Shown here piece after piece: positions 3,131 to 12,812 of a stretch of DNA of 64,000 bases. Position numbers and translations under genes: made by a program. The DNA comes from Candidatus Anderseniibacteriota bacterium (lineage in GTDB: Bacteria > Patescibacteriota > Andersenbacteria > UBA10190): NCBI GenBank assembly GCA_016197005.1, contig JACPWO010000001.1, positions 153,134 to 217,133 on the forward strand, written 5' to 3'. Under the pieces are notes generated by a model, which saw only the letters and a program-made list of their open reading frames with translations, had not been told where the DNA came from and made no database searches. The stretch's first letter is position 1. Every line of letters begins with the position of its first letter.

Positions 3131-3913
3131 ATGTTAGATTTAATCAAACTCAACGAGGAGATTCTTAAAAAAATTCAGATTCTCCTTAGCATAGTGCGTA
3201 GCTCTATCAACCTTGATGGTGGAAAGTTGGAAAGAGTAATCATTCCTAAAGTTAATTTTGAAAACAAAGGCTTATTACTAAGCGACGTTGAAACGCTACT
3301 GAATCGAATTGAACGAGAAGAAAACGAACTGCTTAGTATAGTGCCGCATAGCCCCCGCGATCACCAACCACGCCCATCGTCAAGTGATCACTTAATGATC
3401 GAGGCAATGTATGGCGTTCCCGCTGATGAGCATTATGCAGAGAAGAAGCAAAAATATAATGAAATCTATTCAAAAAGTTTTGAGATAAAAATACCTGATC
3501 ATAAGAGGCTAGATGAATTTGAAGAGTTGATAGATTCCGAGATAAAAAATCAGAGCAATCTTATTTGTGGAGAACTGCGCTTTAATTCTAGTACGGGCGA
3601 GGTTGAGTATTTTGATCTAAAAGATCGATTACTGCCTGGCACAAAAGAATTTTTATTATTGCGTGCATTATTGGCAAAAAAAGGAGAGTGGATCAGTTAT
3701 GAAGAAATCGTTAGGGTTATTGATCGAGATGAGAAAAAGGCGATGGTTAAGTCTGATGGTAAGAGAATTCGTTCTCTAGTTCGTAACATCAAAAATAAAC
3801 TTGGAATGACGGATGCGGGAGCAAAGAAGCTTGGTATTACTCCACCACTGCCCTCCCTTTTTTCAGAAGCTAAACAAAGAACCAGAAATGGTGTCGCGAT
3901 GACGTGCAATTAG
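3131..3913 (+). CDS. Putative transcriptional regulator: unrecognised N-terminal domain plus an OmpR/PhoB-type winged-helix C-terminus, with no receiver domain.
   Basis: The C-terminus LPGTKEFLLLRALLAKKGEWISYEEIVRVI...KRIRSLVRNIKNKLG matches the trans_reg_C pattern (LTxxEFxLLxxL...G.V.SRE.L....W......R.V.V.I..LR.KL). Confidence 0.5.
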   Translation: MLDLIKLNEEILKKIQILLSIVRSSINLDGGKLERVIIPKVNFENKGLLLSDVETLLNRIEREENELLSIVPHSPRDHQPRPSSSDHLMIEAMYGVPADEHYAEKKQKYNEIYSKSFEIKIPDHKRLDEFEELIDSEIKNQSNLICGELRFNSSTGEVEYFDLKDRLLPGTKEFLLLRALLAKKGEWISYEEIVRVIDRDEKKAMVKSDGKRIRSLVRNIKNKLGMTDAGAKKLGITPPLPSLFSEAKQRTRNGVAMTCN

Positions 3914-6676: not shown

Positions 6677-6937
6677 AATCGCATCAATACACCTCACCAG
6701 ACAGTTACGCAGTATTTCTCCCCTATAAGGGGAGGAAATACTGCTCTACTGCTGTGGTTATGAGGCTAAAGAACCAGTTGCGCAGTTCAGTTGCGCACAT
6801 CAATAATCAGAATAAACGGCTTAATCAAGGGTGCAATAGATTCAGTCGCGCAGTAGCGCAAAGAGGAGGTGATCATTAGAAATGAGCCAAAAGATCAAGT
6901 TAGGCTTAAAGCATCGTGAGTTGTATCGTGAGTAAGC

Positions 6938-7336
6938 TTGGTGTGGGATATAATAGAGTTGATGGAAAACAGCACAAAACAGAGCTATGTGTGGCAAGAA
7001 GTGGAATTCATTGAGGCATTTACCAACCCATTATCATCAACATTTGCCAACGGCCGACGATCCGCGCTGCAAGTGGGATATAGCCCTTGGTATGCCCGTA
7101 ATATCCGCTCACACTTCCCACCTCACCGGATTATGAAGCTGCAAAGAATCGTTGAGGCTAGAAGGGCGGTTACAGGCGACGAGCAAGAGAACAAAATAAT
7201 ATTTGAGTACGTTGATAAACCATTGACGCGGCGGATCGTTCGCAAGAATCGACGAGCCCTACCATCACACTTACAGCCTACCCCCTTTGAACAGGTATCG
7301 CGCGAGCTCGATGAACTGCTTGGCCCGATAGAGTGA
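6938..7336 (+). CDS. Hypothetical protein. The ATG at 6962 is the more likely start.
   Basis: The ORF lies between the primase gene and the recombinase gene. I do not recognise the family. Confidence 0.4.
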   Translation: MVWDIIELMENSTKQSYVWQEVEFIEAFTNPLSSTFANGRRSALQVGYSPWYARNIRSHFPPHRIMKLQRIVEARRAVTGDEQENKIIFEYVDKPLTRRIVRKNRRALPSHLQPTPFEQVSRELDELLGPIE

Positions 7337-7514
7337 TTATCACTTATTGACTAGTTTCAAGAGGTCGCTAGAGCCTCTACTAACAGGATATGCTCAAAAA
7401 AGATGGTTAATTTGTAGAGTAATATTAAGTAATGTAGTGCAAAAATGATCAAAATCGCTTCAAAATCAATTAAAATGCCTTCAAAAAGTTACCTTTATGC
7501 GCTATAATATGAAC

Positions 7515-7620
7515 GTGATCCAGCTAAATACAAAAGCCCAGAGTTTTTTATTTGCGTCGCTACCCGTAAAGGGGCAGTCTGCTAGCGACGTATTCCTCTG
7601 GGAGTATATTGCTGGATCAC
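7515..7620 (+). repeat. Nested inverted repeats forming a long imperfect hairpin in the leader of the serine recombinase gene.
   Basis: The pairs are gtgatccagc (7515-7524) with gctggatcac (7611-7620), cccagag (7537-7543) with ctctggg (7596-7602), and cgtcgcta (7555-7562) with tagcgacg (7583-7590). A TATAAT box sits just upstream at 7503-7508. Confidence 0.45.
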
Positions 7621-7651
7621 AACAGGCTGTCCCTTTTAGGTTATTGAAATT

Positions 7652-9346
7652 ATGAAAGTTGTTGGATTGGCTAGGGTATCTTCAAAGGAGCAAGAATCGG
7701 GCTACTCCCTAGATGCACAGGTAAAGCTCAATAAGGAGTATGCCGGCGGCAAGGATTTTACGATTGTTAAGACCTTTAGAATTACTGAATCGGCAAGTGG
7801 CAAGCAGATACGTAAAATCTTCAATGAGATGCTTAACTTTGCTACTGATCACAATATCCCCGTGATTATTTGCGAGAAGATTGATCGTTTAACCCGCAAC
7901 TTGAAAGACGCAAACACAGTTAATGAATGGGTTAGGGAAGATAAAAAGCGAGAGGTTCACTTTATTAAGGAAAACTTTATCCTCAATAGCAATACGAGAG
8001 CGCACGAAAACCTAGTTTGGGATATGAAAGTGGCAATTGCACGTTTCTACTCCAATAATCTTTCAGAGGAAATCCGCAAGGGGCAAAAAGAAAAGATAGC
8101 CCAAGGCGGCTTTCCTACTAAAGCGAAGCCTGGCTACAAAGGCGTCGGAGAAAAAGGCCACAAAGTTGATGTTATTGATGAGGCGGTAGCTCCTTACATT
8201 ATTCAAATGTTTGAGCGGTATGCTACTGGCAACTATTCCCTAAAGGCTTTGGTTAAAGTGATGTACGAGGAGGGGTTAAGAAATAGAAGTGGAAAAAAGA
8301 TAGGTAAAACAAGGATGCACCAATTACTTGCTGATCCGTTCTACTATGGAAAATTGCGCTGGAAGGGCGAAATTTATCAAGGAAACCACCAGCCAATTAT
8401 TTCAAAAGAGCTTTTTGACGCTGTGCAGATCAAATTAGACCGCAACCTTTCTAATCCTCAATATCGGAAACATTTACCTATATTCAAGGCCAAGATTAAA
8501 TGCGAGGAGTGCGGCGGCCTTATAACGTGGGAACTCCAAAAAGGCCACTGGTACGGCCATTGCAATCATTATCGAGATTGCGGTCAAAAGGCTTATACGC
8601 GGCAGGAAAAAGTCGAAGAACAGCTTTTCCCATACTTTGATAAGGTAGCCCCTAAGAGTGATCGGGTATTAAATTGGCTAGAACGAGCCTTAAAAGAAAG
8701 TCATAAAGATAAGATTCAATATCATACCGCCCAGCGAGAGAAACTGAATACGCAGATAGCAACCATTGATCAACGTATGGAAGGGGCGTATGAGGATAAA
8801 TTAGATAAGAGAATCACGGCCGAGAAGTACGATGAACGGAGCCGTAAATGGCAGGAGGATAAAGCAGATTTACTAAAATCACTGCATAACCTAAGCGATG
8901 CTAACCAACAATATTATCAAGTAGGTTTTGCTATTCACGAGTTGGCACTTAAAGCCAAAGCAATCTACCACTCTCAACAAGCAACCACCGATGATAAGCG
9001 ATTATTGTTGAGCAAGCTCTTTGCGGATATGTCTTTAGATGAAGGCAAGCTCACCGGCAATTACTCTGCTGCCTTTGAGTTTTTAATCACTTGGATACCC
9101 AAAGTAAACAAGATTTTCGAACCAGAGCTAAAAGTGGCAAGCAATAAGGCGTTAGCAACCAGTACCGCAAAAGAGCTCCAAAAGGCTATGGCTGGGGTAG
9201 CTGATCAACGACAGGATTTTCGAACCGATAAAAACAAATCTGTTGAGCCACAAAAGGTATTATCAGATGCAGAAACGAATGTATTGTTCCCGGGCAGGGA
9301 TTCGAACCCCGATTCAGAGCTCCAAAGGCTCTTGTCCTGCCGTTAG
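7652..9346 (+). CDS. Large serine recombinase (resolvase/invertase catalytic domain, recombinase domain and zinc ribbon).
   Basis: The N-terminus VGLARVSSKEQESGYSLDAQ carries the catalytic Ser motif. The protein is large and has a Cys cluster CEECGG...HCNHYRDCG. Its last ~19 codons are encoded by the complement of the tRNA-Gln. Confidence 0.85.
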   Translation: MKVVGLARVSSKEQESGYSLDAQVKLNKEYAGGKDFTIVKTFRITESASGKQIRKIFNEMLNFATDHNIPVIICEKIDRLTRNLKDANTVNEWVREDKKREVHFIKENFILNSNTRAHENLVWDMKVAIARFYSNNLSEEIRKGQKEKIAQGGFPTKAKPGYKGVGEKGHKVDVIDEAVAPYIIQMFERYATGNYSLKALVKVMYEEGLRNRSGKKIGKTRMHQLLADPFYYGKLRWKGEIYQGNHQPIISKELFDAVQIKLDRNLSNPQYRKHLPIFKAKIKCEECGGLITWELQKGHWYGHCNHYRDCGQKAYTRQEKVEEQLFPYFDKVAPKSDRVLNWLERALKESHKDKIQYHTAQREKLNTQIATIDQRMEGAYEDKLDKRITAEKYDERSRKWQEDKADLLKSLHNLSDANQQYYQVGFAIHELALKAKAIYHSQQATTDDKRLLLSKLFADMSLDEGKLTGNYSAAFEFLITWIPKVNKIFEPELKVASNKALATSTAKELQKAMAGVADQRQDFRTDKNKSVEPQKVLSDAETNVLFPGRDSNPDSELQRLLSCR

Positions 9347-9358
9347 ACGACCCGGGAA
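9287..9358 (-). tRNA. tRNA-Gln (anticodon TTG)
   Basis: Reverse complement TCCCGGGTCGTCTAACGGCAGGACAAGAGCCTTTGGAGCTCTGAATCGGGGTTCGAATCCCTGCCCGGGAA. The acceptor stem is 7 bp, the anticodon stem AGAGC/GCTCT is perfect, the loop is CTTTGGA, and the T-loop is TTCGAAT. Confidence 0.8.
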
Positions 9359-11747: not shown

Positions 11748-12812
11748 TTACTTCATTGTTTCGTCGACCACCTGCTTGATCGTTAGCCGAAATATTCCGG
11801 ACCGACGAACGAATTCATCCAGTGAGAGTCGACTAGAATCCTCAATGAGATCTAAAAGGCCATCTAGGTCTCCTTCATAGATAGTTGTTGTGTTGTCCGA
11901 GTTCATGTACCGACTGGTGCTAATAAAAGCTCGATGACCAGCGATCTGTGCAGCACTTTCCAGTGATCCTCCGTGCTCTAGAAAAAGCCTAAGGCCCGTG
12001 GCACGAAGCACGCGGGGAGTAATGTCTCTTTTAATTCCAGCGCGACGTGCAATACCTTTGATTGCTCTTTGAACACTCCGCGGGTGTAGACGATCGCCTA
12101 CAACGCCGTTAACTCCTTTCTGGAGTACCGGGAAAAGAGGATCAGACGCCTTATTGAATGGAGTATGCGCTAAATACTCATCAACGTAAGTTTCGACGAG
12201 TGTATTTGCGGGAATGTACCGTTCAAACTTGTTCGTAATATGGAACCACCGTCGATTGTCACGAAATTGATAGTCTGCAACGTTCAATTCAAGCATAGCC
12301 TCTGTCGAAAGAAATCCATGGAGTATCGTGGCCATCATGGCTCGATTTCGCAACTGCACAAGTGATTCTCCATTACTAGCCTTAAGTAGTTGGGCAATCT
12401 CTTGAGCACTCAATCGCGCAGTGGCCCCCTCATCATCCACCTTTGAACGCTTGACTGATGCTACAGGATTTGCCGGAAGGAGCTCACCTTTCACAAACCA
12501 GTCAAAAAAAGTATGGATAGCTGCTAACTGGAAATTCGTATATCGAGGCTTGTACTTTTGATCCACCACTGAAACGAAGGCTTCAACTATTTTGTGATTC
12601 ACTTGCGATAGGACAAAATTCTGCTTATCGCACCACGATAGAAAATGTGAGATGGCTCTTCCGTAAGTATCACGCACTCCATTACTCTGAATACGTTCGT
12701 AGAAATAACTTTGGAATCTGGATACAAACTCGGGACCAGCCCGCGTAACTGATTGGGGACAGTGGGTAAGCAATACCATTACCGTCCTCGGCAATTCTTT
12801 TCGATCGCTCAT
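11748..12812 (-). CDS. Tyrosine site-specific recombinase (XerC/XerD-like).
   Basis: The C-terminus LRATGLRLFLEHGGSLESAAQIAGHRAFISTSRY fits the R..H-R..Y catalytic pattern. GGAG is present upstream of the ATG. Confidence 0.8.
   Translation of the reverse strand: MSDRKELPRTVMVLLTHCPQSVTRAGPEFVSRFQSYFYERIQSNGVRDTYGRAISHFLSWCDKQNFVLSQVNHKIVEAFVSVVDQKYKPRYTNFQLAAIHTFFDWFVKGELLPANPVASVKRSKVDDEGATARLSAQEIAQLLKASNGESLVQLRNRAMMATILHGFLSTEAMLELNVADYQFRDNRRWFHITNKFERYIPANTLVETYVDEYLAHTPFNKASDPLFPVLQKGVNGVVGDRLHPRSVQRAIKGIARRAGIKRDITPRVLRATGLRLFLEHGGSLESAAQIAGHRAFISTSRYMNSDNTTTIYEGDLDGLLDLIEDSSRLSLDEFVRRSGIFRLTIKQVVDETMK

Follow-up and report, generated by a model that had tools for sequence, protein, structure and literature searches.

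Cis-acting pseudoknots located at the ribosome-binding region of a 5′ leader, with compensatory changes in their helices, are found in the rpsO (S15) and alpha-operon (S4) mRNAs of E. coli and in the gene 32 mRNA of T4. In these systems the encoded protein binds the pseudoknot, trapping or excluding the 30S subunit. In SAM-II and preQ1-II, riboswitches in which a pseudoknot hides the ribosome-binding site, the start codon comes just after the 3′ strand of that pseudoknot, while in the c-di-GMP-II aptamer the hairpin is bent back and its apical loop pairs with the 3′ tail. Structured RNAs are also known directly upstream of the recombinase genes of mobile elements, with which they are conserved, as the bridge RNA of IS110 and the seekRNA of IS1111; and Rfam contains Lacto-int and other integrase-associated motifs, candidate structured RNAs, derived from comparative genomics, that lie upstream of the integrase genes of phages or other elements. 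In IS10 and IS50 (fold-back inhibition) and in hok-type mRNAs, a structure in the 5′ leader, sometimes a metastable co-transcriptional fold, curbs the synthesis of a potentially harmful DNA-rearranging or toxic protein.

Large serine recombinases (LSRs) drive the integration of many phages and islands and are widely used tools of genome engineering; current thinking attributes their control to protein and DNA alone. To our knowledge no RNA-level control of an LSR has been described, and none was found in the literature searched. The region presented here lies immediately upstream of an LSR gene in a 64,000-nucleotide stretch of a Candidatus Anderseniibacteriota contig, the whole of which is referred to as the window. 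A preliminary description had noted a three-tier nested inverted repeat in this region and offered two readings of it, an attP-like site or a leader RNA that controls translation of the recombinase. Judged from comparative sequence analysis, the region represents an RNA family that had not been catalogued before and is strongly supported; its general kind, the cis-regulatory pseudoknotted leader, is known.

The leader resembles each of the systems above in some respects and departs from it in others. It is far larger than the operator pseudoknots (a hairpin of ~106 nt with a pseudoknot of 14 bp), it starts exactly at the predicted 5′ end of the transcript, and it serves the recombinase of a mobile element in hosts that are poor in Shine-Dalgarno (SD) sequences; binding by the recombinase or another protein, as in those operators, would here be a conjecture. 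Its topology is like that of c-di-GMP-II, but it matches none of the Rfam models of SAM-II, preQ1-II and c-di-GMP-II, its conserved bases lie mostly within a helix, and the recombinase context is unrelated to metabolite pathways. The partner gene encodes a serine recombinase (Resolvase and Recombinase domains), whereas the partner of the IS110 bridge RNA has DEDD (RuvC-like) and Tnp domains; unlike the bridge RNA, the leader showed no variable loops complementary to target or donor in a comparison with the junction at the recombinase 3′ end, and it is continuous with the ORF, from which it is set off by a short, fixed spacing. Motifs of the Lacto-int type accompany tyrosine integrases and differ in sequence, structure and taxa. 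The structures of IS10, IS50 and hok are simple hairpins or 5′-3′ pairings specific to one element, in contrast with the complex pseudoknotted fold seen here, which is kept across recombinase clades that are 22-30% identical.

None of the 4227 models of Rfam 15, among them those of riboswitches, ribozymes, 6S and leaders, matches over the motif in the window at gathering thresholds, and in five homologous loci the motif has no Rfam 15 match at E-values up to 5. The best Rfam match over the motif, SpF44 (21.7 bits against a gathering threshold of 70, E = 0.49), was dismissed as chance. No description of the leader motif was found in the literature searched, and a 2017 catalogue of 224 motifs mentions none that is associated with a recombinase.

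Architecture of the leader and its promoter

The predicted fold is a long, interrupted hairpin, the apical loop of which forms a pseudoknot of 11-14 bp with the sequence immediately 3′ of the hairpin. All elements of the leader are on the forward (+) strand. The three perfect inverted repeats are present as first described, nesting over 106 nt (7515-7620) between a TATAAT box (7503-7508) and the recombinase ATG (7652). The outermost helix, P1, has perfect arms of 10 bp (GTGATCCAGC, 7515-7524; GCTGGATCAC, 7611-7620) and an imperfect extension to 17 nt, in which the 5′ strand 7515-7531 pairs with the 3′ strand 7604-7620 (88% complementary). P2 is formed by CCCAGAG (7537-7543) and CTCTGGG (7596-7602), and P3 by CGTCGCTA (7555-7562) and TAGCGACG (7583-7590), both of them inverted repeats that show covariation. 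The junction between these two helices, J2/3 (7544-7554, TTTTTTATTTG), is U-rich and single-stranded, and the U-rich tract is kept in all variants in the alignments. The apical loop comprises 20 nt (7563-7582, CCCGTAAAGGGGCAGTCTGC), and its family consensus is CCYnnAAAGGGGCrGTCTGCC.

A fourth pairing, overlooked in the preliminary description, crosses the other three and makes the structure a pseudoknot: AAAGGGGCAGTCTG (7568-7581) in the apical loop pairs with CAGGCTGTCCCTTT (7623-7636) through 14 pairs, two of them G-U. The 3′ strand begins 2 nt past P1, and in the window the ATG lies 18 nt past the CCC of the pseudoknot; the spacer to the start codon (7637-7651) is short and A/U-rich and has no SD sequence. 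In the apical loop of the window sequence, the local mini-hairpins CCC..GGG and GCA..UGC can compete for the 5′ strand of the pseudoknot. RNA folding, one of the checks proposed at the outset, gave a z-score of -4.3 for a 151-nt segment, none of 200 dinucleotide shuffles being as stable. The minimum-free-energy (MFE) fold, calculated with a program that handles nested pairs only, favours the pseudoknot helix at the cost of P1 and P3.

Just upstream of the leader is a series of 21-nt tandem A-tract repeats (7440-7481). Membership of the leader in a repeat family or MITE was rejected, as there is a single copy within the window and the 10-mer arms occur no more often than expected by chance. A coding explanation was set aside: the small ORF concerned (7497-7655, 52 aa) begins upstream of the -10 box, and the conservation takes the form of base-pair covariation and is not codon-like. 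Pairing with the neighbouring LOOT sRNA was set aside, the duplex energy being no better than that of shuffled sequence.

The TATAAT box is the -10 element of a sigma-70-type promoter (7480-7508), with TTCAAA at -35 (7480-7485) and a 17-nt spacer, 10 of the 12 positions matching. A -10 hexamer is found in 108 of 115 distinct homologous instances, and in 89 of these 108 it is located at one fixed distance, ending 4 nt before position 1 of the covariance model described below and 6 nt ahead of the first P1 pair. A TG extension or a -35 box accompanies the hexamer in about half of the instances. Because the -10 box is at a fixed distance from P1, the transcript should begin flush with the first P1 pair, at ~7513-7515 in the window; a start site downstream of 7620 had been named beforehand as counter-evidence, and the predicted site is well upstream of that position. 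Conservation of the promoter sets both the strand of the RNA and its predicted 5′ end.

The position of this 5′ end bears on whether the motif could be a self-cleaving ribozyme or a processing element that trims the 5′ end of the mRNA. Self-cleaving ribozymes are often found among small pseudoknotted RNAs that lie beside integrase genes, and the sequence core of the leader is conserved. However, with an RNA that already starts at its first helix there would be nothing at the 5′ end to trim; no unpaired junction resembling a catalytic core is conserved, and no Rfam ribozyme family matches at E-values up to 10. A ribozyme is, in our judgement, highly improbable.

At the other end of the leader, the succession of an A-tract, a G+C-rich stem and a T-tract (AAAGGGGC...GUCCCUUUU) could be read as a transcription attenuator, the pseudoknot helix and T-run making up an intrinsic terminator that would abort most transcripts before the ORF; the MFE fold of the window segment, in which this helix displaces P1 and P3, fits such a reading. 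Intrinsic terminators, however, are compact G+C-rich hairpins with a loop of 3-8 nt followed by at least five U, and the leader does not have this form: the ‘loop’ would be 41 nt long and is itself paired to upstream strands, and only 3-5 T are seen past the helix before a conserved RAGU. A terminator scan of 6900-7900 found none. Moreover, the ATG often lies 8-11 nt past the helix, which would put termination inside the initiation region, and attenuation needs no such constraint. We consider it very improbable that the leader is an attenuator.

Covariation and distribution of the motif

Relatives of the recombinase are encoded in 80 loci that were fetched from contigs of a one-genome-per-species collection, nearly all of them from Patescibacteria/CPR MAGs. 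In many of these loci the region upstream of the gene shares the architecture of the window leader, although the sequence differs in every stem. A covariance model built on the nested helices (P1-P3) matches ~38 of the 80 loci, every real match being on the recombinase strand, and in the window it finds one copy (7513-7642, 117 bits). A protein-independent scan of metagenome contigs, using a DNA pattern made from the pseudoknot strands alone, yielded at least 120 loci, and 98 of the 100 metagenomic loci searched contain the full P1-P2-P3 motif (E ~1e-9 or lower). The architecture is seen in about 120 distinct sequences, upstream of LSRs in Patescibacteria/CPR genomes and metagenomes. The repeats are present in homologous elements; their absence there was the second observation that the preliminary description had named as counting against it.

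The covariation analysis that had been proposed was run, for the nested helices, on 92 distinct metagenomic sequences. On the raw alignment MAFFT and RNAalifold gave only P1, and alignment of P2 and P3 needed the covariance model. All 26 nested pairs show double-sided compensatory changes (10 of 10 pairs in P1, 7 of 7 in P2 and 9 of the 9 modelled in P3). Standard pairs occupy 91.8% of the cells of the nested helices, compared with 65.0% for shuffled partners (a value as high was seen in 0 of 500 shuffles) and no more than 46.5% for partners slid by 1-3 columns; for P2 the observed figure is 93.6%. The covariation score is 0.670, against 0.205 shuffled and no more than 0.106 slid. G-U pairs (97) exceed A-C pairs (65) only modestly in these helices.

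Because the metagenomic set was chosen by its pseudoknot sequence, the pseudoknot was tested on the protein-retrieved set. In this set cognate loop-tail duplexes average -21.2 kcal/mol, compared with -14.7 kcal/mol for non-cognate ones. From the GGG:CCC anchor outward, helix positions 4-11 form pairs in 91.4% of cases; shuffled partners give 56.9%, and the highest value in 2000 shuffles is 68.1%. Divergent pseudoknot helices occur (GGGTAACCATG/CATGGTTGCCC, GGGGCTAATTG/CGGTTAGTCCC and GGGGCAATCTAC/GTAGGTTGCCCC). The inner part of the helix is mostly invariant, with one covarying pair (GC in 13, AU in 10) and one conserved G-U, which becomes an A-C mismatch if read on the opposite strand. The linkers are very short, 0-2 nt from P1 to the 3′ strand of the pseudoknot and 1-2 nt from its 5′ strand to P3, so that three helix ends must meet at a single junction. 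The predicted structure, including the pseudoknot, is established by covariation.

A serine recombinase is found downstream of almost all metagenomic copies of the motif that have enough sequence. When distinct copies of the genome and metagenome sets are pooled, 98 of 120 first ORFs encode a catalytic serine-recombinase N-terminus, and of the remainder most are small ORFs with a recombinase downstream; the leader is linked exclusively to recombinase operons. The small element proteins encoded after some copies of the motif have 66-86 aa. The recombinases that carry it fall into four clades at ≥40% identity. Short variants (L001-3, L008, L022 and L023) lack P3, and in other variants the pseudoknot is longer. 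In a sister group of recombinases (L073-L080) there is a conserved upstream block that is free of structural covariation. BLAST found no match to the leader in annotated phage and plasmid records. Among the viral contigs of IMG/VR a narrow pattern gave 0 matches and a broader one only 2, indicating that the elements are not typical catalogued viruses.

The leader could also be read as a ligand-sensing riboswitch, in which P1-P3 and the pseudoknot would form the aptamer, and a small molecule or ion would shift the pseudoknot and couple recombinase synthesis to a signal. The fold is complex, covarying and pseudoknotted, it includes conserved single-stranded tracts (the U-rich J2/3, the CCY of the loop and a CC past the pseudoknot strand) and competing local hairpins in the apical loop, and the pseudoknot abuts the start codon as in riboswitches that sequester the ribosome-binding site by a pseudoknot; the likeness to c-di-GMP-II may be counted here too. 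However, most of the invariant nucleotides are inside the pseudoknot helix and not in junction pockets, and P3 is dispensable in the short variants, which would be unusual for a ligand pocket. Known riboswitch families do not match, and the genes downstream, which are only recombinases or small element ORFs, give no metabolic clue to a ligand. A riboswitch is an unlikely interpretation of the leader.

The tRNA junction and the attachment site

The LSR gene (7652-9346, + strand; TAG at 9344-9346) encodes a protein of 564 aa, recognized by its matches to the Pfam domains Resolvase (PF00239, E = 2.2e-22) and Recombinase (PF07508, E = 2.8e-16) and to the integrase family PHROG 95 (E = 5.7e-78). 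The final 61 nt of the ORF are overlapped by a tRNA-Gln(UUG) gene on the reverse strand (9286-9357; ARAGORN; Rfam tRNA, 58 bits). Genes for tRNA-Gln, -Asn, -Arg or -Glu adjoin the recombinase gene at its 3′ end in at least 22 related loci, and their distance from it hardly varies. This constancy places the junction between element and chromosome at the 3′ end of the gene, ~1.7 kb from the repeats; the tRNA-Gln overlap is the real attachment region of the window element, and the family belongs to tRNA-targeting integrative elements of CPR bacteria.

A 9,662-bp unit, which has a DUF5659 gene in common with the window element, occurs in tandem on one contig (loci L010 and L011) with 100% identity and no tRNA. 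A circular form that was assembled as a concatemer would account for the arrangement, and the architecture of the leader in it is unchanged. Since integration would split a crossover site, a leader that is intact in both the integrated and the apparently circular copies is not that site. Together with the location of the junction at the tRNA, this disposes of the attP-like site proposed in the preliminary description.

A wider class of DNA-level sites may be considered, comprising an attP, a pseudo-att or an operator for the recombinase or a repressor, with the repeats serving as protein half-sites. The region has dyad symmetry and adjoins the recombinase gene, the place of attP in some phages (the argument made originally), and the A-tract repeats at 7440-7481 could be an operator. 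Against this, it is at the opposite end of the gene that the tRNA marks the chromosome junction, and the region is whole in both the integrated and the apparently circular copies. The attP of an LSR is a duplex of ~40-60 bp, with two imperfect half-sites and a central dinucleotide, and the leader does not fit this pattern; a region of ~125 nt with compensatory changes in four helices, one of which crosses the others, is unlike protein half-sites in general. Furthermore, the conserved G-U would turn into an A-C mismatch if the other strand formed a DNA hairpin, and the fixed promoter position and the spacing to the ATG both indicate RNA. A DNA site is scarcely credible on these grounds.

The junction also provides a means of evaluating a further RNA-based possibility. 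By analogy with the IS110 bridge RNA, the leader could be released from the 5′ end of the mRNA and act in trans as a guide, scaffold or directionality cofactor of the recombinase. Its position directly upstream of the gene is that of the bridge RNAs, its association with LSRs is exclusive and ancient, spanning clades that are 22-30% identical, and its strongly conserved sequence core suggests a macromolecular partner. A guide was rejected in a test of 22 loci that covered the junction at the recombinase 3′ end: the leader had no identity or complementarity to the tRNA/attachment region that was specific to the cognate locus, and the longest word that the two shared, directly or as complement, averaged 7.86 nt for cognate and 7.98 nt for non-cognate combinations. 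In addition, helices take up nearly all variable positions and leave no loop that could be programmed, neither a terminator nor a processing signal separates the RNA from the ORF, and the close spacing of the ATG favours a role in cis. Characterised LSRs recognise their att sites by protein alone, which also counts against such a partner. We regard a trans-acting RNA as improbable.

Coupling to the start codon and proposed function

In 65 of 118 instances (55%) the first ORF has its ATG 7-12 nt past the CCC of the pseudoknot; in 103 (87%) the distance is within 30 nt, and in only 3 does it exceed 60 nt. This tight spacing is kept even where the first ORF is a small protein ahead of the recombinase. 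The spacer of the family is A/U-rich (consensus UUURAGUUW) and has no SD sequence. Across the window, a weak SD-like motif at best is seen in ~9 of 59 ORFs, indicating that SD-independent initiation is the norm for the host.

The promoter, the ATG spacing, the spacer devoid of an SD sequence and the negative terminator scan together identify the region as a sense-strand 5′ leader RNA that is tied to the translation initiation region. The leader has what a cis-regulatory RNA of this type should have, namely a place in the 5′ UTR on the sense strand, a promoter at a fixed distance and a structure adjoining the initiation region. The second of the two original readings, that of a leader RNA, stands in its main features, given the conserved promoter at the outer stem, the compensatory changes in all helices and the tight spacing to the start codon.

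We propose that 7513-7651 is a cis-acting 5′ leader of the LSR mRNA that gates initiation of translation and probably affects mRNA stability, a reading to which we would assign a probability of roughly two in three. Transcription from the TATAAT promoter would start flush with the P1-P2-P3 hairpin, and the apical loop and the 14 nt just 3′ of P1 would close the leader into a compact pseudoknot, with its 3′ edge predicted to lie a few nucleotides upstream of the start codon. In an SD-poor host, loading of the 30S subunit would depend on an unstructured landing pad, and for this reason a pseudoknot beside the ATG should limit initiation. The pseudoknot most likely limits or gates 30S loading at the recombinase start codon, which would hold synthesis of a potentially harmful recombinase low, and the 5′-terminal helix most likely shields the mRNA from decay that depends on the 5′ end. 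It is the effect on translation, its repressive sign and the existence of a trigger that we infer here.

Simple steric occlusion of the ATG cannot be universal, since the spacer is 18 nt in the window and longer than 30 nt in ~13% of instances. A helix located at an SD-like spacing could even aid docking of the ribosome instead of hindering it. The leader may also alternate between two states, one closed by the pseudoknot and one open, the latter formed through the local hairpins of the apical loop; the open state might be transient during transcription (a kinetic switch), or it might be selected by a bound protein or ligand. The stability of the pseudoknot (~-20 kcal/mol) greatly exceeds that of the local hairpins, so that a thermodynamic switch is not apparent unless a cofactor takes part.

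The core of the pseudoknot (AAAGGGGC/GUCCCUUU) is near-invariant across divergent recombinases, which hints at a specific partner, be it the ribosome, a protein or a ligand. It is conceivable, and we put it forward tentatively, that the leader does more than act as a passive damper. It may be a sensor, a ligand- or protein-binding RNA that decides the timing of integrase synthesis in a CPR integrative element. Alternatively, it may be a mimic: the inner AAAGGGG:UCCCUUU helix resembles an SD:anti-SD duplex at an SD-like spacing and could dock an mRNA that lacks an SD sequence on the platform of the 30S subunit. Finally, the recombinase itself might bind the leader, for autoregulation or for control of directionality. 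If any of these is true, it would be the first time that a control or cofactor at the RNA level is described for an LSR.

As a new and well-supported family, the leader can be probed by RNA biologists for ligand or protein binding, and it offers a test case for the initiation of translation in SD-poor bacteria. It may also be used as an annotation marker for tRNA-targeting integrative elements of this class. The Patescibacteria are a huge and poorly understood bacterial radiation, and it is in their mobile elements that the leader would operate; its presence across four divergent clades and at least 120 metagenomic loci suggests an RNA layer that sets when, and how much, integrase is made.

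tRNA genes at the 3′ end of the recombinase gene

The 3′ coding part of the large serine recombinase gene (9283–9346, + strand) overlaps a tRNA-Gln(UUG) gene on the opposite strand (9286–9357, −), the putative junction between element and chromosome. The final ~20 codons of the recombinase are an antisense reading of this tRNA gene, and the same arrangement is seen in L028, L036, L047 and others (around 7533–7607) among the loci encoding relatives of the recombinase. The identity of the tRNA gene differs by locus, being Gln, Asn, Arg or Glu. tRNA genes are the targets of this serine recombinase family, a mode of integration that is more usual for tyrosine integrases than for serine recombinases, and the C-terminus of the recombinase is probably altered by integration. 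At one related locus (L009), the position of the tRNA, directly downstream of the recombinase gene, is taken by a group I intron (Rfam RF00028; 3273–3468, − strand, 52.9 bits). Intron-containing tRNA genes have been reported from Patescibacteria, and the intron may be part of such a gene.

The C-terminal coding region also contains two copies of the repeat ACA(A/G)GATTTTCGAACC (9108–9123 and 9211–9226), spaced 103 nt apart and similar to the T-arm of the adjoining tRNA (CAGGGATTCGAACCCC, 9296–9311). The copies may be remnants of the attachment region.

Sequences upstream of the recombinase

A-tract repeats of 21 nt, arranged in tandem (CAAAAATGATCAAAATCGCTT / CAAAATCAATTAAAATGCCTT, followed by CAAAAAGTT), occupy positions 7440–7490 and extend into the −35 box of the promoter of the leader, the pseudoknotted RNA that precedes the recombinase gene; a related 29-mer is found at 3451–3479. 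Possible roles for the repeats are those of an operator or of a bent-DNA/UP-like element. In a sister group (L073–L080) the recombinases lack the leader and are preceded by another sequence-conserved block, ~150 nt upstream of the genes (TGTGGGCAACT..GCTTAGC..TTAGTATAGGGTG..GGTACCAAAGGTCGCATTCGAACC), in which no structural covariation was detected and which ends in a tRNA T-arm-like sequence.

In some elements a small ORF lies between the leader and the recombinase (recombinase relatives L036, L039, L040 and L047, and further leader-bearing loci L117, L122, L127, L129 and L137). These ORFs, of 66–86 amino acids, belong to two unrelated families (examples, ‘..KFHIKNEDYFGTLATILDLFR..’ and ‘..LLNMAEALNEIRLDFELPDEH..’), neither of which has a match in Pfam or PHROG; they are candidate directionality or regulatory factors. 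Shine-Dalgarno sequences are scarce in the window as a whole: of 59 ORFs, ~9 have a match, however weak, no more than 20 nt from the start; on sequence grounds, initiation in the host is mainly SD-independent.

Forms of the element and its neighbours

The left portion of the putative integrative element contains a LOOT RNA (Rfam RF03000; 2611–2735, − strand), which scores 64.2 bits, above the gathering score of 46.4, and is flanked by two unannotated ORFs. LOOT is a small RNA motif of unknown function, known from TM7/Saccharibacteria, and on this basis a Saccharibacterium is the probable host; no special pairing was found between it and the recombinase leader in the window.

In contig CAYUBE010000010.1 (L010/L011), a 9,662-bp unit is repeated at 100% identity over 29,155 bp, the length of the contig. 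The unit comprises a DUF5659 gene together with the recombinase and its leader, and lacks a tRNA; it probably represents a circular element that the assembly rendered as a concatemer. In the window, a tyrosine-type integrase (Phage_integrase domain; 11748–12812, − strand) is located on the far side of tRNA-Gln, 2.4 kb from the right-hand end of the serine recombinase gene, and may reflect either a second mobile element or a hotspot for integration.
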